A stretch of 9,966 bases of DNA, from UHGV virus genome UHGV-2186022; one strand, written 5' to 3'. Every line of letters starts with the position of its first letter. The stretch's first letter is position 1. Positions 316-9,966 of the stretch are shown here, piece by piece. The position numbers and the translations under genes were made by a program. Below the pieces are notes generated by a model that was given only the letters and a program-made list of their open reading frames with translations, did not search any database and was not told where the DNA came from. Source of the DNA: a virus.

Positions 316-395
316 CGGGTCCTTCCTGGAATTATGGCCCGTTACGGGGCGACGACCTCGCGCGTTTTCACTATTTATGAAAATTTTTCGGGATC
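316..395 (+). other. lambda-type cos site, copy A (cosQ-side flank, cosN, start of cosB)
   Basis: Plus strand 341-395 reads GTTACG GGGCGACGACCT CGCGCGTTTTCACTATTTATGAAAATTTTTCGGG. This matches the recalled lambda right-end/left-end junction (GTTACG + GGGCGGCGACCTCGCGGGTTTTCGCTATTTATGAAAATTTTCCGG) with one mismatch in the 12-nt cohesive-end sequence (347-358). 316-324 CGGGTCCTT matches the lambda right-end ACGGGTCCTTTCCGG. Confidence 0.7.
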
Positions 396-494
396 CATGT
401 CCGGTTTCTCTGCAAGTTAACCATATGAAAAATATAAAAACATGCTTTCCATGAACCGGACATGCGCAAAAAACAGACACTAAAACCGGACATC
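396..494. repeat. three copies of a 12-bp motif CATGTCCGGTTT in the cosB position of cos A (candidate small-terminase binding sites)
   Basis: 396-407 CATGTCCGGTTT (forward); 453-464 GAACCGGACATG and 483-494 AAACCGGACATC (both reverse, 11/12 match). An A-tract-rich segment (408-452) lies between copies 1 and 2. Layout resembles lambda cosB (R sites plus IHF site) but the motif differs from the lambda CGTTTCC core. Confidence 0.45.
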
Positions 495-561: not shown

Positions 562-996
562 TTACTGTTCTGTATCGGCTGATTGCTCCATGCTGGCACG
601 GCGAACGCTTACGGCATGACGCCACCCAGCCAGAAAGCCAGCCATTTTATTTCGTGCCTTGCTCACATCTTCCGGTGAATAGCCGTAAATCTGCAAACCT
701 TCATCAAATCGATGTTCTGTTTCTTCACTGGAGTACTCGTCACGCTCAGATGAAAGCAGCCTGGCAAACATAATTTTTTCCAGCGCACTGGTTTCTACGT
801 GATATCTGATGGCCTCAAGACGGCTTTTACCTGAAGACCAAAGCAATGTATGCCCGATGTGATAACCGCCAGACTTTCCGCGATCCGCATTAAGATACGG
901 CATCCCCTGTTTGGTCCATGCGCGAATAGTGGTTCTGTTAACCTTGAAATGTTCAGCTATTTCCTGCTGACTTACAAAACAAGCTTTATCAATCAT
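562..996 (-). CDS. Nu1-like small terminase subunit-like DNA-binding protein (144 aa)
   Basis: ATG at 996-994 with AAGG 8 nt upstream; TAA at 564-562. N-terminus VSQQEIAEHFKVNRTTIRAWTKQGMPY aligns by eye with lambda Nu1 KKQLADIFGASIRTIQNWQEQGMPV (winged HTH, GMP motif) followed by a GGKG-like G-rich loop. Shorter than Nu1 (181 aa). Sits between two cos copies. Confidence 0.55.
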   Translation of the reverse strand: MIDKACFVSQQEIAEHFKVNRTTIRAWTKQGMPYLNADRGKSGGYHIGHTLLWSSGKSRLEAIRYHVETSALEKIMFARLLSSERDEYSSEETEHRFDEGLQIYGYSPEDVSKARNKMAGFLAGWRHAVSVRRASMEQSADTEQ

Positions 997-1063
997 AATG
1001 TTACCTTAACTGCATGGTTAAATATTAATCAAGTGGTGGTGGTGTCACCTTCACGGAAAAACG

Positions 1064-1128
1064 TCATAAATAGCGAAAACCCACGAGGTCGCCGCCCCGT
1101 AACGGGTCCATATGCCGGAAAGGACCCG
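1064..1128 (-). other. lambda-type cos site, copy B (cosQ-like, cosN identical to lambda, truncated cosB)
   Basis: Minus strand reads ACGGGTCCTTTCCGGCATATGGACCCGTTACG GGGCGGCGACCT CGTGGGTTTTCGCTATTTATGA. The 12-mer at 1097-1086 is identical to the lambda cohesive end; first 15 nt match the lambda right end. About 85 percent identical to copy A over roughly 65 bp, in inverted orientation. Confidence 0.7.
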
Positions 1129-1129
1129 T

Positions 1130-1152
1130 AAAAAAAGCCGGATTTCTCCGGC
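1130..1152 (-). terminator. rho-independent terminator of the head operon
   Basis: On the minus strand, hairpin GCCGGAGAAATCCGGC (1152-1137) followed by TTTTTTT (1136-1130), 7 nt after the TGA of the 137-aa gene. Confidence 0.7.
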
Positions 1153-1158
1153 CTTATG

Positions 1159-1572
1159 TCAGATGGTTTTCAGTATGCGATCGACGTCGCCTTCATCGCC
1201 CTGGTTTCTGCCGTCGTATGCCATGCCGGGTGATACGGCTTTCGGGCTGTGCATGTCCATAAAGTTTTCAAAGGCTGCGGTAAGCTCCGGCGCAACCTTT
1301 GGGCGCTCCTGCTCTATGGTCATGTTCAGGATTTCACGAGCATTATCGACGCTAATACATGGCACGTTTGCCATTGCACGTAACAGCGGCTGATAGTCGT
1401 TATGTTCATGAAGCGCCATAATCGCATCAGCGCGCGGCTTGTCCTGCTCTTCCAGTTTGTTGAGTTGATATACGGCCTCGTAGGTTGATAAACCTCTGTC
1501 AGCCATTGCCCGCGCTTCTGCTTTAAATTTACTCGCCAGCGGTAGCGCCATGATGCTTTCATTCGTTGCCAT
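1159..1572 (-). CDS. hypothetical protein (137 aa), last gene of the head operon
   Basis: ATG at 1572-1570 with AGCAGGGGAAACG upstream (SD GGGG); TGA at 1161-1159; 12-bp gap after the D-like gene. No family recognised; position after the capsid genes suggests a head-assembly or packaging accessory role (inference only). Confidence 0.6.
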   Translation of the reverse strand: MATNESIMALPLASKFKAEARAMADRGLSTYEAVYQLNKLEEQDKPRADAIMALHEHNDYQPLLRAMANVPCISVDNAREILNMTIEQERPKVAPELTAAFENFMDMHSPKAVSPGMAYDGRNQGDEGDVDRILKTI

Positions 1573-1584
1573 CGTTTCCCCTGC

Positions 1585-1920
1585 TTATCGCGCCAGCGGC
1601 TGAACGGATACGCCAGAACCCGCAAAGGCGGCGCATTTTTTCGCGTCAGTGTCGGCGCTCTCAGGCCAGTTTACGGCGGCGATATTAAATATCCCCGTCT
1701 TGTAACACTGTGCTGATTTCTGCTTTGACGTGTCCACGGGGTACGAGGTCAGATAAACAGCCTTCCCAGATTCCTGACCATCCCACGGCTTAAACTCGCC
1801 ATTGTCCGCCAGCATCAGCGGGGTAAATTCCTGAATAACGCCAGCATCAGCGGCAAAATGTACCAGCGTCGTGGATACCTGCTGACTGCCTGCAAATAAC
1901 TCAATGTATGGAGTGTCCAT
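1585..1920 (-). CDS. head decoration protein, lambda gpD-like (111 aa)
   Basis: ATG at 1920-1918 with GGGGGA SD; TAA at 1587-1585. By-eye alignment to lambda gpD: TPLML, WDG, YK(T/S)G(I/T)F, WPE(S/A)A and C-terminal KK..AFAG(S/T)..S(V/I) shared. Confidence 0.8.
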   Translation of the reverse strand: MDTPYIELFAGSQQVSTTLVHFAADAGVIQEFTPLMLADNGEFKPWDGQESGKAVYLTSYPVDTSKQKSAQCYKTGIFNIAAVNWPESADTDAKKCAAFAGSGVSVQPLAR

Positions 1921-1931
1921 AGAATCCCCCG

Positions 1932-2987
1932 TTAAGCAATTTTGACGGTAACAAATTTGCGAATATCTGCCGGAACCGGCTGCGGTGCGCTGTGCGTCTG
2001 CACGTACTCAATCGCCGGATCGCCGTCCTCAATCCAGTTTTTCGGGTAGTACATGTTTTGCGTTGCGCCTGTTCTTACCGCTTCCTGATCCATAATCGCA
2101 CCATAGGCCACCAGCCCTTTGTTGTTGGTGTTGCCCAGGACCAGCAAATCAGGATCAAGGAAATATTTTTCTGTGCCGTCGCTGTCAGTGTATTTGCCGG
2201 AATAGACGATAAGGGCCAGATCACCAAGATAGCCTTTAAAGCTCACCACTTCGCCCAGGTTTTTACATGCCAGCTCTGCGGCGGATTCTGAACCACGGGA
2301 GAGATCGTACAGTTCACGGAATTTTTTAAAGCTGCGTAACATGCGCCATACATCAACGCCCATAATCATGACGTTTGCGGGGCAACCTGCCTGATCTGCG
2401 TATAGCTCAATGTCATAGATTGGGTCGTGTATGTCTTTGTCCTGCTCTGACCATTTTTTACCGTCGGCCTGCTCTATGATGTTTTTTTCCGGTATCTTCC
2501 AGTCGATTTCATAGCGCTCTATGCCTTCGCCCTCAATGATGTTTTTTCCGGTCGTTATCGCATTCACCGCCAGCCATTCCACGCGCGCTTTAATGGCGTT
2601 TATCTGGCGGCGCATGTTGCCAGTAATCAGGCGCATACGGCGGTAGGTAGGGTCGTTAAGCTGTGCCGGATCTTCTCCAGCCATGCGCATTATTGTTTTT
2701 AATGGATCGATTTCGTGTTTTGGCTTCATGTAGCCAGGGCGAATAATGCTGGTTTCGTACCCTTTATCGCGCTGAACCTGGCTACCAACCATAGGCGAAC
2801 AAAACGCCGACATAGTGACTTCTTCAATATCCAGGTTATCTAACATGATGTCCTGTGTGTTGAATGTCGCCACGTTCGGGAAAAACAGCGTGGTAAACAG
2901 AGGGCTGAATTTAAAATCCGCAATATCCCCGCGATTCAGGTACATGAAAAGCTGGTTAGTGTTAAGTGCCGTTGCTTTGCCTGCCAT
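1932..2987 (-). CDS. major capsid protein, lambda gpE-like (351 aa)
   Basis: ATG at 2987-2985 with GGGGG SD; TAA at 1934-1932. By-eye alignment to lambda gpE across the length: FKFSPLF vs FKFDPLF, PGYMKPKHEIDP vs PGYVKPKHEVNP, EDPAQLNDPTYRRMRLI vs EDPQNLADPAYRRRRII, WSEQDK vs WSKRDK, VSFKGYLGDLALIVYSG vs VSYKGMYGDVAIVVYSG, LVLGNT, YPKNW..GDPA. Confidence 0.9.
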   Translation of the reverse strand: MAGKATALNTNQLFMYLNRGDIADFKFSPLFTTLFFPNVATFNTQDIMLDNLDIEEVTMSAFCSPMVGSQVQRDKGYETSIIRPGYMKPKHEIDPLKTIMRMAGEDPAQLNDPTYRRMRLITGNMRRQINAIKARVEWLAVNAITTGKNIIEGEGIERYEIDWKIPEKNIIEQADGKKWSEQDKDIHDPIYDIELYADQAGCPANVMIMGVDVWRMLRSFKKFRELYDLSRGSESAAELACKNLGEVVSFKGYLGDLALIVYSGKYTDSDGTEKYFLDPDLLVLGNTNNKGLVAYGAIMDQEAVRTGATQNMYYPKNWIEDGDPAIEYVQTHSAPQPVPADIRKFVTVKIA

Positions 2988-3193
2988 TATTCACCCCCAT
3001 AATTTTTATGCATCCCAAGCGCCGCAAGTAAATAAGAGCGTACAAGTGAACCTATCGACGGCTCCGGCGTCATCAGCGGATCCAGTCCAGCCGCCACGCC
3101 AGCCTCATAGTTTTTTTTGTGGCGCTGCTTGAGCACCTCCACGATTTCGGGGCTTATGTACACCGAAACACCGCCTTTTTTCTCTTCAGCCAT
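2987..3193 (-). CDS. hypothetical small protein (68 aa), first gene of the head operon
   Basis: ATG at 3193-3191 with AAGAGGA 10 nt upstream; TAA overlaps the capsid ATG by one base (TAATG), implying translational coupling. N-terminus GGVSVYISPEIVEVLKQ is weakly reminiscent of an RHH beta-strand plus helix; not a firm call. Confidence 0.6.
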   Translation of the reverse strand: MAEEKKGGVSVYISPEIVEVLKQRHKKNYEAGVAAGLDPLMTPEPSIGSLVRSYLLAALGMHKNYGGE

Positions 3194-3228
3194 AGTAAGA
3201 AATTCCTCTTCGACTTAAAAAATCATAA

Positions 3229-3278
3229 CTGGATGTTCATCCAGCTCTGATTATAATCATGATTGCATTTTGTGCAAT
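3229..3278 (-). promoter_or_regulatory. candidate sigma70 promoter and operators of the head operon
   Basis: Minus-strand -10 TATAAT (rc of 3250-3255) inside a perfect 12-bp palindrome TGATTATAATCA (3248-3259). Weak -35 TTGCAC (rc of 3272-3277), 16-bp spacer. Dyad ATTGCA-N5-TGCAAT (3262-3278) overlaps the -35. Second dyad CTGGATG-TT-CATCCAG (3229-3244) lies at the predicted transcription start. Confidence 0.45.
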
Positions 3279-3354
3279 GATATTGAGTTGTGTTGCAAAT
3301 TATGAAATGATGATCCCGATCATGTGTGTCAGTGCACCAAAAAGCCTCATATGC

Positions 3355-3395
3355 AAAAGCCCGATAAGCCACCTCTGACCTTATCGGGCTTTTTT
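3355..3395. terminator. strong hairpin, likely plus-strand (possibly bidirectional) terminator
   Basis: Perfect 11-bp stem AGCCCGATAAG (3358-3368) and CTTATCGGGCT (3380-3390), 11-nt loop, then TTTTT (3391-3395) on plus; preceded by AAAA so a weaker minus-strand terminator is also possible. No plus-strand ORF upstream. Confidence 0.5.
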
Positions 3396-3504
3396 ATCTG
3401 CCTGCAAAGATGTCGAACGAAAATTAACCACAACCATCATCTTTTTTGCATCAAAACAATTAAAAACAATAAATTACGCTCATGATGATGATGACGATAA
3501 AATC

Positions 3505-3570
3505 ACAAAAATGCGCTTTTTTCCGCGCCTCCCGCCCCGTGTTCAGGCCCACCCCGCCAGGAGGACCCGT
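3505..3570 (-). other. degenerate third cos-like copy (copy C)
   Basis: Minus strand reads ACGGGTCCTCCTGGCGGGGTGGGCCTGAACACGGGGCGGGAGGCGCGG, alignable to copy B (ACGGGTCCTTTCCGG...GTTACGGGGCGGCGACCTCG) at roughly 70 percent. The cosN-equivalent 12-mer is degraded. Confidence 0.4.
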
Positions 3571-3592
3571 AAAAAAGCCGGATTGCTCCAGC
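3571..3592 (-). terminator. rho-independent terminator of the SSB-like operon
   Basis: Minus-strand hairpin GCTGGAGCAATCCGGC (3592-3577, one G-T wobble) followed by TTTTTT (3576-3571), 16 nt after the TAA of the SSB-like gene. Near-identical to the 1130-1152 terminator. Confidence 0.65.
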
Positions 3593-3608
3593 TTCTGTCA
3601 CTCGTCGC

Positions 3609-3977
3609 TTAAAACGGTATGTTATCCCCGTACGGATCATCATTCCCCGCCTGTTGTTTTGCCCTGTTCAGCGCGTCAGTAGCCTGGCCCTGTTGACCTT
3701 TTTTGCCGCCCAGTCGCGCCGTTCGCGCACTGATTACACTGTCTGCGATAACCTGCCAGCCCTGCCGCGTTTCTCCGTTCTGCCCAGTCCACTGGCTGAT
3801 CTGCATGTTACCCGCCACGCTCAGGAGTTCACCCTTGCGGTGCCTTTCCAGTGCTTCGGCCTGGCTGCACGGAAGGGGGGCCGCCATACGCGCCAGCGTC
3901 ATCGGTGTGCCCTTGCTGGTCTGTTTTACCTGCGGGTCGTCCACCAGCCGCCCGTAAGCTGCTATCTGTGCTGTCAT
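3609..3977 (-). CDS. short SSB-like protein (122 aa) with C-terminal ..DNIPF tail
   Basis: ATG at 3977-3975 with GGAGAGG SD; TAA at 3611-3609. N-terminus [25 protein letters not shown] resembles E. coli SSB [41 protein letters not shown] resembles TRKWTDQSGQDRYTTEV; C-terminus [11 protein letters not shown] resembles the SSB acidic tip DFDDDIPF. The middle of the OB fold appears shortened. Confidence 0.6.
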   Translation of the reverse strand: [122 protein letters not shown]

Positions 3978-4219: not shown

Positions 4220-4270
4220 AGGCTTTACCTCACAGCAATAAAATAAAATTTTTGCATTTTAACCCTTCAC

Positions 4271-4494
4271 CTGTTCACCTTTTGAGATTTTCCCTTTTTA
4301 TTCATAATGTTAAGGGGTGAACAGTTTCACAAAAACTATTCACCAACTGTTCACCACTGTTCACCCTTAAAGCTCAATAAATAATCAAAAAGGTGAACAG
4401 TGAATAGTTTGGTGAACAGTTCACAAATAACTGTTCACCCTATAATGTACTGATATAAAAGATATTTATAACAGGGTGAACAGTGGTGAACAGT
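4271..4494. repeat. iteron array, putative origin of replication
   Basis: Nine copies of the 9-10-bp motif GGTGAACAGT in both orientations. Forward at 4316-4325, 4392-4401, 4411-4420, 4475-4484, 4485-4494; reverse (ACTGTTCACC) at 4271-4279, 4346-4355, 4356-4365, 4431-4439. AT-rich spacers at 4281-4310 and 4441-4470. Immediately downstream of the primase stop. Confidence 0.8.
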
Positions 4495-4506
4495 TATTCC
4501 ATAAGT

Positions 4507-6321
4507 TTAATTTTTGCTGTCGTCATTTGTGACCGATGCACATGATGGCATCCAGTCTTCTGAATCCTCTGTCAGTGTCACATTTGAACGCAAACCGTGC
4601 TTCGTTTTCCGTTTTATATACTCCCTGCCATATTCCGCCATTGCCCCCGGCATATCTTTACCGAAGCGCGTCAGTGTTACAGGTTTACCGAATCCGTGTG
4701 CCCTCATATATGCCAGATAGGCGTGATAAAGATACCTGCGCGGACTGAACGGAATAATTTCGGCATTACCCACTAACAGACCATCACACATTACCGACGA
4801 CATGAGATAGCCACAGAAGTCCACCAGCGAATCGCCCTCGCGTTTTATCACCAGAGCTTCTTCTGATTTCTGCTGCTCATACAGCAGGCGTTTAGCTTCG
4901 TCCTGGTCAGAAAAACGAGTAAGCAGATGGCGAATCACAACCGCCAGCTCTCCTTCTATTTTTTCTGCCAGCATGGGGTCGCGCTCGTTCTCCGGTACAA
5001 CCTCCGAAAAATTGAATATCACCCGACGACGTGAGATCCCCCCGCTGCGGTCACTGAATGACATGGCGTTATTGTTCACCGCCAGCACGACCGCCTGAAT
5101 GCGTGTTGAGTAGGGGGCTTTATGCTTCGGGTCGATTGCCACCTTGTCACCGCCTGTAATGGCCTTAATTCCTGCGCCATCACCAGCGTAGCGGGTCATA
5201 TCCGGCATGATAATCAGCGAAAAGCCAACCACTAACGCGCGTTCCCTTGCATCTTCCAGCGCCTTCATGCTTGCCGATACTGTGTTGGCCTTACCCGCCA
5301 GCATGGTGCAAATCTCCGCCATCACGCTTTTACCACTTCCCCCTGGACCTGTTACCTCAATGAATAACTGCCAGTCGTACCGGTTCGCCAGCACCATGAA
5401 TAATGCAGCCAGCACGCGATCCGTCTTGCGGTCATTCTCTGCCACCGAGCAGCGTAACCACTTCCAGAAATTCGGCGCATGTGTTGCCAGCGTTTCCCCC
5501 TCTGCTGGTGGGCTGAAAGGTAATTCACTGGCAATTAACAACCAGTCGTTTTTGTTATGCTCCCGAAAATTACCTGTTCTGGTATCAAATACCCCGTTAC
5601 TGAATCCAATCAGGTTACGGGCTGTATTCCCCATTACAGGCAAACTTAACTTCATGGTATCGACCGCCGATTTAATGGCGTTCTGCGAATAGCTGATCTC
5701 CGCATCAATGAAAATCTGCGCCATAGCACGCTGTAACTCTTTATCCTGAATCGGCTCCCATACAACGCCGTTGTAATGGTGAACAGTGTCAGAGTCGGCA
5801 TGAATCGCCAGTTCACCGCCATAATGTGCCAGGAGAACTTCGCCGCGCTGGCTTGCTCCCATCTGGTTAAGCGCCAGTGGTGCGGCGCTGTCTTCTGTTT
5901 TTTTCTTAACAGGAAGCTGAATCACCAGACCATCAGAAAGATTCTGGCGCTCACGGGCCAGATATTCGCGCCAGTTCTGCACCTCCTGGCCGTGCATACC
6001 CTCAGGATAAAAATTTGCATCCTGTACGCCTGCCGCCGCCAGCTTCTGACCAATCGCCTTTATCATTACTGGCGCAAGATATCCGGCCCTGAATATGCGC
6101 ACGGATTTTCTGCCTTCCGGCACAATTTGCAGCTTATCCAGTTCGGATAACTGCTGCTCCCCAAGCCACACAGGAGGCTCATTATCTCCGGCCATACGCG
6201 CGTCATGTTCCTGCCATTGTTTTGCGTGTGACCAGGCATCACTACCCGCAAAAATAATGACTTCTGTTTCTTTGTGTTTTATGCCGCGTGACTGCTGTTT
6301 TACGTTCGGTGCCAGTTTCAT
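4507..6321 (-). CDS. primase-helicase, P4-alpha/D5 family C-terminal domain type (604 aa)
   Basis: ATG at 6321-6319 with AGGGGG SD; TAA at 4509-4507. Walker A GPGGSGKS within EVTGPGGSGKSVMAEICTMLAGK, and the overall layout is typical of satellite and plasmid primase-helicase proteins. Confidence 0.85.
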   Translation of the reverse strand: MKLAPNVKQQSRGIKHKETEVIIFAGSDAWSHAKQWQEHDARMAGDNEPPVWLGEQQLSELDKLQIVPEGRKSVRIFRAGYLAPVMIKAIGQKLAAAGVQDANFYPEGMHGQEVQNWREYLARERQNLSDGLVIQLPVKKKTEDSAAPLALNQMGASQRGEVLLAHYGGELAIHADSDTVHHYNGVVWEPIQDKELQRAMAQIFIDAEISYSQNAIKSAVDTMKLSLPVMGNTARNLIGFSNGVFDTRTGNFREHNKNDWLLIASELPFSPPAEGETLATHAPNFWKWLRCSVAENDRKTDRVLAALFMVLANRYDWQLFIEVTGPGGSGKSVMAEICTMLAGKANTVSASMKALEDARERALVVGFSLIIMPDMTRYAGDGAGIKAITGGDKVAIDPKHKAPYSTRIQAVVLAVNNNAMSFSDRSGGISRRRVIFNFSEVVPENERDPMLAEKIEGELAVVIRHLLTRFSDQDEAKRLLYEQQKSEEALVIKREGDSLVDFCGYLMSSVMCDGLLVGNAEIIPFSPRRYLYHAYLAYMRAHGFGKPVTLTRFGKDMPGAMAEYGREYIKRKTKHGLRSNVTLTEDSEDWMPSCASVTNDDSKN

Positions 6322-6838: not shown

Positions 6839-7067
6839 GGTGCGCCCCTTGAATATCTGCGGTAAGAATTTTGCCTGCCTCATTCAGCGCCATATCAGCA
6901 CTAAGTTGCATAACAGCCAGTGAGTGAGGAACGAAAGCCCCGGCATATTCTGTTTCGCTGGTGGCGTGCTTATGCGCCTTGTCTGCGATAACAGAAATAT
7001 CAATCAGCGCGTGCATCAGCGTTTTGATGGCTTCGGCGGCTGCGTCCGGACGGGTGTTATTGCACAT
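6831..7067 (-). CDS. hypothetical protein (78 aa)
   Basis: ATG at 7067-7065 with AGGGGG SD; TGA at 6833-6831. No family recognised. Confidence 0.55.
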   Translation of the reverse strand: MCNNTRPDAAAEAIKTLMHALIDISVIADKAHKHATSETEYAGAFVPHSLAVMQLSADMALNEAGKILTADIQGAHHA

Positions 7068-7263
7068 GGCGTACCCCCTGACGAATACGGGCAGCGAATA
7101 CCATCACGCAGCCATCAGGAGATTGCTGACGCGCTTCCTGTTCGCTGGTGGCCTCAATGGTAATCACGCGCGGTTGTGCCGTGCTCAGGGCGATAAAACG
7201 CCAGATGTATTTATTCAGGTTGTACGAGTCCCGCCCTTGCGGGTGTGTGGTATGATTTCTCAT
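7057..7263 (-). CDS. hypothetical protein (68 aa), first gene of the operon ending in the primase
   Basis: ATG at 7263-7261 with GAGG 6 nt upstream; TAA at 7059-7057. It is the 3-prime part of the 316-aa track ORF; only this part has a credible start. Confidence 0.5.
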   Translation of the reverse strand: MRNHTTHPQGRDSYNLNKYIWRFIALSTAQPRVITIEATSEQEARQQSPDGCVMVFAARIRQGVRHVQ

Positions 7264-7360
7264 AGCTGCCTCGATACTTTCGCTATCGTTGGTGGTTAGA
7301 AGCCCGTTGGTGTTGGTAGCACCTGCGGGCTTTGTCTTTTCATCGATTACCTCAACAAAG

Positions 7361-7441
7361 GTGTCAGCCACTATACTAGTAACAGGTGTCAGCCACGTCA
7401 ATAGTGTTTTTCCATTTTCTTGTGTGTATACTGTCAGCCAC
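7361..7441. promoter_or_regulatory. triple direct-repeat operator in the divergent promoter region
   Basis: GTGTCAGCCAC at 7361-7371 and 7386-7396, TGTCAGCCAC at 7432-7441. TATACT hexamers abut copy 1 (7373-7378) and copy 3 (7426-7431). Lies between divergent starts at 7263 (minus) and 7463 (plus). Confidence 0.5.
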
Positions 7442-7462
7442 CTAATAACAAGGAAATCAGAT

Positions 7463-7642
7463 ATGGCAACGAAAGCAGTTAATGGAAAATCCAAAAAACT
7501 TGAGGCACGAGTCCCCCATGCAATAGCTGACGCTGTAGAAAATTTAAAGGAAGAAGGCGAAAGCACTGGGCAATTTATCGTTTCGGCACTTGAAGGCGAG
7601 ATCAAACGCCGCCAGCGCCGCAAGGCCAAAGAGCAGGAGTAA
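7463..7642 (+). CDS. small ribbon-helix-helix-like DNA-binding protein (59 aa), candidate regulator
   Basis: ATG at 7463 with AAGGAAA SD; TAA at 7640-7642. KLEARVPHAIADAVENLKEEGESTGQFIVSALEGEIKRR fits an RHH pattern (beta-strand LEARVP, helix A, G-x-S/T loop, helix B) with a basic tail. Fold assignment is by eye. Confidence 0.55.
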   Translation: MATKAVNGKSKKLEARVPHAIADAVENLKEEGESTGQFIVSALEGEIKRRQRRKAKEQE

Positions 7643-7684
7643 CCATCACCAGCGCCGTGGTGTAAGGTATTACGGCGCATTGCT

Positions 7685-7873
7685 ATGCAGGACAACACAA
7701 TGACCGATAAAGAATTGACCAAAACATTATCACCGGCACGGAAAAGACGGCGCAGAAAGATAGAGCATGAATCAGAAAGATTCGCGCCATGTGCTTTTGC
7801 CCTTGAGCAATTCCTTAAAGAGTACAGGGAAAAGCGCTCATTGCAGGTATGGCAACGAACTGAACCAGACTGA
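7685..7873 (+). CDS. hypothetical basic protein (62 aa; alternative ATG at 7700)
   Basis: ORF with RKRRRRK basic stretch; weak SD for either start; TGA at 7871-7873; followed by a terminator. Confidence 0.35.
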   Translation: MQDNTMTDKELTKTLSPARKRRRRKIEHESERFAPCAFALEQFLKEYREKRSLQVWQRTEPD

Positions 7874-7968
7874 TTGCATTGCCCACCAGCCTGATAGCGG
7901 CTATCATCCCCGTGCTTATGTTTGGGATCATATACACATAAGGCGCAGCGGGTTAATTGTTCAGAAAG

Positions 7969-7995
7969 GCGGCTCCATATCGGGGCCGCTTTTTT
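7969..7995 (+). terminator. rho-independent terminator between convergent genes
   Basis: Stem GCGGCTCC (7969-7976) and GGGGCCGC (7982-7989), 5-nt loop, TTTTTT (7990-7995). The alpA stop is at 8022 on the other strand. Confidence 0.6.
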
Positions 7996-8021
7996 CGTGT
8001 TTGTCATATCTGTGATACCCG

Positions 8022-8228
8022 TTAAGCAGCCGTTCCGCGTGCTTCCTGTTCGCGTTCTTTCTGCCAGGCCAACACATCATCCTCATACCATCCGCGACGG
8101 CGTAAACCAACGCGAAAACCCTGCGGAAATTCTCCGGCGTTGATCATGCTTTGCAGCGTGCTGTCTGCCTTGATGTGGATAATTTTTTTTACTTCCTGGC
8201 GAAAGATAATTTTTCTGATTGCTTCCAT
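8022..8228 (-). CDS. alpA: AlpA-family phage transcriptional regulator (68 aa)
   Basis: ATG at 8228-8226 with AAGG 9 nt upstream; TAA at 8024-8022. IIFRQEVKKIIHIKADSTLQSMINAGEFPQGFRVGLRRRGWYEDDVLAWQKER fits the AlpA/Vis HTH pattern (EV..STL...I..G.FP....G.R..GW.E..V..W). Position next to a P4-type integrase is typical. Confidence 0.8.
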   Translation of the reverse strand: MEAIRKIIFRQEVKKIIHIKADSTLQSMINAGEFPQGFRVGLRRRGWYEDDVLAWQKEREQEARGTAA

Positions 8229-8361
8229 CGTGATTTACCTTGTGAATCCGGTGTATTCCGGTGACAAATACGGTAAATCATCGGATATGGGTAAAAACAG
8301 TTCCCACCGTTTTTAAACGGTATACACCGTTTTTTATATTGATGATTTGAAATGGAATTAT

Positions 8362-8384
8362 AAAAAAAGCGGCATTTCTGCCGC
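8362..8384 (-). terminator. rho-independent terminator downstream of the int-proximal ORF
   Basis: Minus-strand hairpin GCGGCAGAAATGCCGC (8384-8369) followed by TTTTTTT (8368-8362). Confidence 0.7.
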
Positions 8385-8724: not shown

Positions 8725-9966
8725 CTACACGGCTCGGATACCCCTTTTACCACTGGCGAGGGTTACGCCCGTCGCCGCAGCCTCGACAAATTCGCCCCAC
8801 CAGCGCATCAGCACGATGCGTTTTTCTATGTAGTTGCTCCGGTTGTATGCCCGTCTAACTTCGTTGGTGTCGACGTGGGCAAGTGCCGCCTCTATTACGT
8901 CCGGCTCGAATCCTTCCTCGTTCGCTGCTGTGCTGAATATGGCGCGTAATCCATGAGACACCAGCACGCCAGCGAATCCCATACGCCGCAATGCTGCGTT
9001 AGCTGTCTGGCTGTTCATCGGCTGCTGTGGGTCTTTCAGACTTGGGAAAACGTAATTGCGGTGGTGGCTGATTGGTTTCATGGCCTCCAGCACCGCCATA
9101 GCCTGACCGGAAAGCGGGATAACGTGATCCCTGCGCATCTTCATGCGTCCGGCAGGTATCGTCCATTGCTTCGCGTCCAGGTTGATTTCATCCCACCGCG
9201 TTGATGACGCTTCGGCGGGACGGGTTACGGTCAGTAACTGCCATTCAATCAGTAATCTGGTCTGCCGTTCTGTTGCCGATACTGATAAAGCCTGCATAAG
9301 CTCGGGCAGCTGTTCGGGGCGGATTGTTGGCATATGTTTTTTTACAGGTGAGGGAAACGCCTTACGCACATTCATAGCCGGATTGGCATCAATCAGCCCA
9401 CTGTTGGCGGCGTAATCCATTACCTCATTAACGCGCTGTAAAACCCGTTTGAGTGTTTCCAGGTTGCCGCGCTCCTTGATGGGGGTAAGCACCTCAACGA
9501 ACCTGCGAGCGGTCAGGGTGTCTATTGGGGTGTTGCCGATGAACGGGAATACATATTTATCCAGCGATCGCCAGATGTCTTTAATCGTGTTGGGGGCCAG
9601 ATTCTGGCTGATTTTCACCTGGTACCATGCCGCCGCCACATTTTCGAACGTGTTCCCTTGTCTTCGGGCCTCTGCCTCTCGTTTTTTCTTCTCATGGCCC
9701 TGCGGGTCAGTTCCGGCACTGATTAACGCTCTGTACTCGCTACGGCGTTTTCTGGCATCAGCCAGGGAAACATCATCAAGCGATCCAAAACTCAGCAATA
9801 TTCTTTTTTTGTCCGATGGCCGGTAGTAGGAAAATCGCCAGAGTTTTGATCCGGACGGTTTGACCAGGAGAAAAAGCCCTCCGCCGTCCTGTAGGGTGTA
9901 TTCCTTTTCCGCTGGTCTGGCTGCTTTGATCTGCACCGTGGTTAATGGGGGTGTTTTTCTCGCCAT
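8725..9966 (-). CDS. int: tyrosine site-specific integrase, P4 type (413 aa)
   Basis: ATG at 9966-9964 (window edge); TAG at 8727-8725. N-terminus LTTVQIKAARPAEKEYTLQDGGGLFLLVKPSGSKLWRFSYY is the characteristic P4-integrase arm-binding region. C-terminal catalytic elements present: TVTRPAEA (Arg), HGLRAIFSTAA (H-x-x-R), HVDTNEVRRAYNRSNY (Tyr region). Confidence 0.95.
   Translation of the reverse strand: MARKTPPLTTVQIKAARPAEKEYTLQDGGGLFLLVKPSGSKLWRFSYYRPSDKKRILLSFGSLDDVSLADARKRRSEYRALISAGTDPQGHEKKKREAEARRQGNTFENVAAAWYQVKISQNLAPNTIKDIWRSLDKYVFPFIGNTPIDTLTARRFVEVLTPIKERGNLETLKRVLQRVNEVMDYAANSGLIDANPAMNVRKAFPSPVKKHMPTIRPEQLPELMQALSVSATERQTRLLIEWQLLTVTRPAEASSTRWDEINLDAKQWTIPAGRMKMRRDHVIPLSGQAMAVLEAMKPISHHRNYVFPSLKDPQQPMNSQTANAALRRMGFAGVLVSHGLRAIFSTAANEEGFEPDVIEAALAHVDTNEVRRAYNRSNYIEKRIVLMRWWGEFVEAAATGVTLASGKRGIRAV

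Follow-up and report, generated by a model that had tools for sequence, protein, structure and literature searches.

The 9,966-nt window analysed here, the virus genome UHGV-2186022, raises the question of why two blocks of minus-strand genes each end in a terminator-like hairpin set against a cos-like sequence, and of where the second of these sequences came from. From its gene content and order, the window can be identified as a cos-type phage-inducible chromosomal island (PICI) of the EcCICFT073 family, reading on the minus strand and carrying three cos-like sites, called A, B and C below. Sites A and B match the published lambda-type sites cos2 and cos1, respectively. Site C lies behind the SSB-like gene and had been taken, in a preliminary description, for a degraded copy of B made within the element; sequence comparison identifies it as a cos cassette of heterologous origin, stemming from a second lineage of lambdoid phages, and not as a decayed duplicate of cos1. 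We use "type II" as a label for the cos of this lineage, i.e., of lambdoid phages with a DUF1441 small terminase and a gpA-type large terminase. The features of C and its borders are as follows.

3577-3592, minus strand: hairpin GCTGGA-GCAA-TCCGGC closing the primase-SSB block (fold -21.1 kcal/mol, z -3.1)
3571-3576, minus strand: U-tract (U6) of the primase-SSB terminator
3562-3568, minus strand: cosQ heptamer GGGTCCT of C, identical to that of lambda and of type-II phages
3523-3540, minus strand: cosN-like core of C, ACG GGGCGGGAGG CGCGG, aligning with type-II phage cosN
3406-3522, minus strand: cosB-like arm of C with ATCATCATC / GATGATG inverted motifs, 89% identical over 116 nt to a phage-context site (Rz-cos-terS-terL)
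3355-3395, both strands: second, two-way terminator-like hairpin bounding the cos cassette on the capsid-operon side (folds -25.6 and -20.8 kcal/mol)

When positions 3380-3720 were compared with E. coli genomes, two kinds of match were obtained: islands with the SSB gene, and places matching 3406-3575 only, which in EDL933 and E2348/69 have the lysis genes on one side and, on the other, a DUF1441 gene and then a large terminase. In the phage collection, 3406-3574 is 90.7% identical over 170 nt to the Stx2d phage Stx2_112808 (E 6e-58), and it also matches VT1-Sakai and 1720a-02 and, more distantly, mEp460 and PhiR40_1; phage cdtI is another of the more distant members of this group. The match falls between Rz and terS in every phage record whose annotation was inspected, and the terminases of these phages are of the gpA type (large subunit, Pfam GpA_ATPase 5e-82) and of the DUF1441 type (small subunit). 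The possibility that these phage-context references are themselves island sites beside a truncated terL was ruled out, Rz being present upstream in six of seven and terS with the terL N-terminus downstream in all seven.

The homology extends across cosQ, cosN and cosB (87-91% over about 170 nt). Anchored on cosQ, the lambda-type family reads GGGTCCTTTCCGG...GTTACG GGGCGGCGACCT CGCGGGTTTTCGCTATTTATGA and the type-II family GGGTCCTCCYGGTGGGGTGG...ACG GGGCGGG... CGCGGAAAAAGGC, and C tracks the latter all the way through cosB and has its ATCATCATC and GATGATG motifs. The lambda cosN GGGCGGCGACCT was not found in C, which reads GGGCGGGAGG(CG) at that place. That the cohesive-end 12-mer of C differs from lambda's (7/12) was thus described correctly at the outset; the difference was put down to degradation, whereas its cause is that C belongs to another cos family. 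The GenBank records of phages cdtI and Tritos (the latter a linear record) start at GGGCGGGAGCGT and end in ...CCACG, in the same register as the lambda record, and their starts coincide exactly with the equivalent G in the core of C. These record ends support the reading of this sequence as the type-II cosN, at which type-II phages would be cut.

Such an arrangement is not peculiar to the window. The order SSB gene, hairpin and C recurs over at least 80% of the query in about 160 of 5426 complete E. coli genomes, including that of Nissle 1917, which carries C at 99.6% identity and matches the full window over only 68%. The spread of the islands was further assessed within E. coli-like sequences in IMG/VR, where a pattern scan for the hairpin-cosQ junction returned 95 sites on 85 contigs. 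The cos is of type II in all 51 sites located after SSB, and of lambda type in 39 of the 43 located after the 137-residue gene that closes the capsid-like operon, where three are chimeras; genomic context and cos type are thereby strictly linked. A second scan, with the hairpin left unconstrained, gave at least 187 type-II sites, and neither the hairpin-cosQ pattern nor the type-II cos pattern had a match in a collection of species-representative genomes. The chimeric sites after the 137-residue gene (L009 2572-2790; L022, L024 and L040 in IMG/VR) combine a lambda-type cosQ arm with the type-II core GGGCGGGAGCGG and a cos2-like cosB, and in L009 no rpp gene follows.

Across islands, the position after SSB is occupied by at least four to five cosB subtypes (Stx-a, as in the window; Stx-b, 1720a-02-like; cdtI/Tritos; and mEp460), each matching a phage-context cosB at 80-99% identity, most of them at 88-99%. 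The presence of several phage-matching subtypes at a single spot points to repeated exchange with phages there, and such recurrent replacement in one place speaks for selection. Tentatively, and with somewhat less than even confidence, the family may keep the terminator after SSB as a landing pad into which cos cassettes of DUF1441 phages are repeatedly swapped, while an Rpp-dependent lambda-type cos is maintained elsewhere, so that packaging would draw on two unrelated small-terminase systems. If true, this would answer a question posed in the EcCICFT073 papers, namely for what reason two different cos sites occur in some PICIs (PMC6092414, PMC6739421).

What, then, might C do? On balance, C probably serves, or recently served, as an alternative packaging site, and the island may use two kinds of helper phage. 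As a 169-bp cassette (cosQ, cosN-like core and cosB-like arm) set directly against the primase-SSB terminator, its most likely function would be that of a packaging site independent of Rpp, the redirecting phage packaging protein, and it would be cut by terminase. Type-II helpers would recognise the island through their own cosB on C, widening the range of usable helpers, and the abutting terminators would close off the operons upstream, so that transcription does not run into cos. No similarity was detectable between Rpp and type-II TerS, which makes a phage-like cosB the simplest route for recognition. In favour of activity, C has retained cosQ, the spacing and 116 nt of cosB, with 89% identity to a phage site whose context was verified.

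Several observations weigh against an active C. Literature searches for experiments on C or for mapped type-II cos ends found none. At least ten island sites have the core GGGCGGGAGG. No phage-context site among the matches listed has it; the cores there are GGGCGGGCGG, GGGCGGGCGGG or GGGCGGGTCGG, each one or two bases away from it. Island copies of C's subtype vary in core length (10-12 nt), which could reflect relaxed constraint. EcCICFT073 has no C, yet it transfers well, and no second, prophage-borne copy of the C sequence was found in the three C-carrying genomes examined. Island copies that are near-identical over 230 nt (L018-L095) concentrate nearly all their variation in the centre of the cosN-like core (window 3528-3537), where the G-run changes.

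The private core, its standing as the most variable spot among island copies and the ability of EcCICFT073 to function without C also favour the alternative that C is a heterologous cassette no longer cut, left over from recombination with a type-II phage or a sister island, of which only the terminator still matters. This explanation is possible but rather unlikely. A dead site would hardly be expected to retain cosQ, the cosN spacing and the 116-nt cosB at about 89% identity to phages, nor is it easily reconciled with the several phage cosB subtypes found at the same island position; in addition, phage cores of C's subtype vary in length too (10-11 nt), and island copies of the mEp subtype retain cores identical to those of phages. 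With a length that varies between 10 and 12 nt in phages and islands alike, the cosN core is by itself no guide to cleavage competence. C is possibly a cleavage-dead relic, as first proposed; the origin then ascribed to it fares differently (see below). The two lambda-type sites and their borders are as follows.

1137-1152, minus strand: hairpin GCCGGA-GAAA-TCCGGC closing the capsid-like operon (fold -17.4 kcal/mol, z -3.7)
1130-1136, minus strand: U-tract (U7) of the capsid-operon terminator
1020-1152, minus strand: site B, the published cos1, equal to 'CFT073 cos.1' (Fillol-Salom 2018 Fig. S5)
1121-1127, minus strand: cosQ heptamer GGGTCCT of cos1, identical to lambda's, 27 nt from the ACG preceding cosN
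1086-1097, minus strand: cosN 12-mer GGGCGGCGACCT of cos1, the exact lambda cohesive-end sequence
1020-1085, minus strand: cosB side of cos1, island-specific, leading into rpp, 98% identical to EcCICFT073 over 211 nt
317-420, plus strand: site A, the published cos2, inverted relative to cos1; it matches 'CFT073 cos.2' and is 99% identical to EcCICFT073 over 231 nt
317-323, plus strand: cosQ of cos2
347-358, plus strand: cosN of cos2, reading GGGCGACGACCT

The cosQ, the spacing of about 27 nt and the cosN of B are all exact, identifying it as a genuine lambda-type cos. The lambda R3, R2 and R1 sites for Nu1 were not found in its cosB, and past about +45 the sequence is unrelated to lambda; this agrees with the published finding that the cosB of cos1 differs from lambda's and is recognised with the help of Rpp (PMC6092414, PMC6739421). 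Sites cos1 and cos2 form a 78-nt inverted repeat (316-393 / 1051-1128, 79% complementary) that brackets rpp. The cosN of cos2, GGGCGACGACCT, shows a single G-to-A change with respect to both EcCICFT073 cos2 and lambda.

The two segments singled out in the preliminary description (1064-1152 and 3505-3592) are indeed present, each directly after the last gene of a minus-strand block (the 137-residue gene and the SSB-like gene, respectively). They had been held to align over about 90 bp. Strict local alignment joins 1121-1161 to 3562-3600, with 37 identities, 2 mismatches and 2 gaps, and the greater length lacks statistical support. The score of this core is 53, as opposed to 15.9 +/- 2.4 for shuffled sequences (maximum 26), and it comprises the cosQ heptamer (AGGACCC on the plus strand), an A-run, the 16-nt hairpin with its GNRA loop and CTTnTGTCA. 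Outside this core (1020-1120 compared with 3460-3560), local alignment finds nothing better than one 9-mer, CCGCCCCGT, whose score of 9 (shuffles 8.2 +/- 1.5) is equalled by 358 of 1000 shuffles and is not significant. This 9-mer, ACGGGGCGG, is the left cosN half, and its distance from cosQ (27 nt in B, 28 nt in C) corresponds to that in lambda. The similarity of B and C is thus real; its strong part is limited to some 40 bp, past which it reflects a cos architecture shared at the level of the family.

An origin of C by copying of cos1 plus terminator within the element, followed by decay of the cos part, draws on this left arm of 41 bp, 90% identical between B and C, and on the cosN 9-mer being in register; it is nonetheless very improbable. 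Outside the left arm, the likeness of B and C is at chance level, and some 116 nt of cosB-like sequence in C have no counterpart in B. In contrast, the full length of C (3406-3574, about 170 nt including cosB) matches the cos position of the second lambdoid group at 87-91% identity (E 6e-58), and decay cannot create such a match, which contradicts an internal copy. Moreover, the phage matches sit in intact Rz-cos-terS-terL contexts and not in island-derived insertions.

Equally poor prospects attach to a role of C in lambda-type packaging, in which its cosQ and left cosN half would modulate termination or make terminase pause 2.4 kb before cos1. The cosQ heptamer and ACGGGGCGG are identical to lambda's and C is oriented as cos1; the right half of cosN, however, differs from lambda, the tracking of type II by the cosB arm is left unexplained, and EcCICFT073 lacks C. 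That B and C resemble each other only as two generic GC hairpin terminators is scarcely credible: although a third terminator (8361-8384) is 83% alike over 24 nt, the match runs through cosQ and 9 nt past the hairpin (beyond the core there being only the non-significant 9-mer), with a score far above shuffles and stems identical across dozens of islands. Chance resemblance was rejected on this same score and on the conservation of the stems across islands.

The left arm that B and C have in common consists of the hairpin, the T-run and cosQ. Both hairpins lie on the minus-strand RNA, with a stem of 9-10 bp (A-U pairs included), a GNRA loop and a run of six to seven U, the capsid-operon hairpin 7 nt past the stop codon at 1159-1161 and the SSB hairpin 17 nt past that at 3609-3611. 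With a GC-rich stem, a short loop, a U-tract and a position just past a stop codon, both have the features of intrinsic (Rho-independent) terminators, and both would be expected to terminate transcription in vivo. A consensus terminator scan of the window listed neither, though both seem to fit its stated rule, and RNA folding detects both clearly; an Rfam scan of the window gave no match. In IMG/VR, the capsid-operon hairpin is the same in the 44 sites after the 137-residue gene, and the hairpin with the GCAA loop is present in 45 of 45 sites after SSB.

In island sites, a GC hairpin with a run of six to seven T always abuts cosQ (-15 to -17 kcal/mol; four hairpin sequences), whereas type-II sites in phage context are without a strong hairpin upstream of cosQ (-5 to -7 kcal/mol). 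Because islands have the cosQ-abutting terminator and phages do not, the two terminator-plus-cos modules, each at the end of a block of minus-strand genes, hold up as a real, island-specific design. The accompanying idea that the cosQ-side hairpin doubles as a terminator must be amended: the hairpin is separate from cosQ, lying just upstream, and is absent from phage cos regions. A strong terminator abutting cosQ offers a simple sequence signature for satellite cos sites. In lambda (L003, about 250-272) and in Stx-type phages (L007, L012, L014), an AT-rich palindrome, TGATAAnnATTATCA, together with a T-run lies just upstream of cosQ, in the place that the GC hairpin occupies in islands.

The remaining features of the window are consistent with a PICI and comprise the following.

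8725-9966 (given as 9966-8725), minus strand: tyrosine integrase (Pfam domains 5.8e-29)
8022-8228 (given as 8228-8022), minus strand: weak AlpA-like gene (E 0.0035, under the Pfam cut-off; annotated as a helix-turn-helix regulator in relatives)
4507-6321 (given as 6321-4507), minus strand: D5-type primase (D5_N, Pox_D5 and DUF5906 domains)
3609-3977, minus strand: SSB-like gene, the final gene of the replication block (Pfam SSB 1.1e-08; PHROG 44; stop codon 3609-3611)
1159-3193, minus strand: capsid-like operon of four genes (Pfam and PHROG matches)
within 1159-3193, minus strand: 68-residue gene, part of the capsid-like operon
1932-2987, minus strand: lambda gpE-like major capsid protein (Pfam Phage_cap_E 8.8e-50)
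1585-1920, minus strand: gpD-like decoration protein (Pfam HDPD 1e-17)
1159-1572, minus strand: 137-residue gene, last of the capsid-like operon (stop codon 1159-1161)
562-996, minus strand: rpp gene, RppC-like, 144 residues (PDB 6hlk RppC, E 5.3e-31)

The integrase and the alpA-like gene lie together at one end and the genes are co-directional; the primase/replicase is followed by a tract rich in direct and inverted GGTGAACAG repeats (4260-4508, 3' of the primase gene), which is most likely the replication origin; and rpp, whose product also matches the lambda Nu1 DNA-binding domain weakly, adjoins a cos1 that is 98% identical to that of CFT073. The gene order is common to the window, E. coli AST198, Nissle 1917 and CFT073, whose copy of the island is EcCICFT073, the model Gram-negative PICI. 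A 316-residue open reading frame (7057-8007, minus strand) overlaps small plus-strand frames and is probably not a gene, as the annotation of relatives has nothing in that place but short Icd-like and YlcI/YnfO genes. The AST198 copy is probably decaying, since its capsid and integrase genes contain internal stops (L001 7930-8985, 15410-16651).

Beyond what the EcCICFT073 papers describe, the window bears a further cos-like site of another phage lineage, and so do about 160 complete E. coli genomes, among them Nissle 1917. If C is active, helper range would depend not on Rpp alone but also on an exchangeable DNA cassette, with consequences for the spread of islands and their cargo among E. coli, including via Stx-type phages, and for sequence-based satellite prediction and the design of PICI-based delivery vehicles.

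Among known systems, EcCICFT073, for which helper-phage induction and transfer have been shown, is described as an island with two cos sites, only the lambda type being reported (PMC6092414, PMC6739421). It shares with the window the gene order, cos1 and cos2 (98-99% identical), an Rpp homologue (RppA), the capsid-like operon and the hairpin after the 137-residue gene. After SSB, however, EcCICFT073 and AST198 carry perC, then the hairpin with the GCAA loop and, directly behind it, a second terminator of the 3355-3395 type with no cos between, whereas the window is without perC and has the 169-bp type-II cassette between the hairpin and the next terminator. Set side by side (L006 12960-13260 versus window 3355-3611), perC plus hairpin and hairpin plus cos look like alternative cassettes for the interval from SSB to the second terminator.

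Lambda cos resembles B in GGGTCCT, the 27-nt spacing, GGGCGGCGACCT and the first 35 nt or so past cosN, and resembles C in cosQ, the spacing (28 nt in C) and ACGGGGCGG; it differs from C in the right half of cosN and in cosB, from both island sites in possessing R sites, and from the islands in having an AT-rich palindrome instead of a GC hairpin upstream of cosQ. Lambdoid phages with a DUF1441 TerS (Stx2_112808, VT1-Sakai/CP-933V, 1720a-02, mEp460, cdtI, Tritos and Ayreon) share with C 87-91% identity over about 170 nt and the same order of elements, but have their cos within the late operon, flanked by Rz and terS and lacking a strong hairpin, whereas C follows SSB and a terminator. Helper-embedded PICIs and sister islands (Williams lab, PMC10111431; L010 and L011) have the same module of SSB, hairpin and type-II cos; however, their second site, beside their own DUF1441 gene, is also of type II, whereas the window pairs type II with the lambda-type cos1 and cos2. 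These sister islands carry a ClpP-capsid fusion, and their two type-II sites are in direct orientation (L010 2478-2571 and 5001-5155; L011 1597-1752 and 5001-5154) and have the same cosN core within each island (AGCGT in L010, AGCGG in L011). L010 adjoins a terL fragment without its N-terminus and then a portal gene, and on that account appears to sit inside a prophage. Finally, SaPIbov5 and SaPIbov4 of Staphylococcus are, like the island in the window, satellites packaged via a borrowed helper cos, with two putative cos sites attributed to SaPIbov4 (PMC6092414, PMC6739421); they belong to another host and phage family and show no evidence of two cos specificities per element, which distinguishes them from an island that combines lambda-type and type-II sites.

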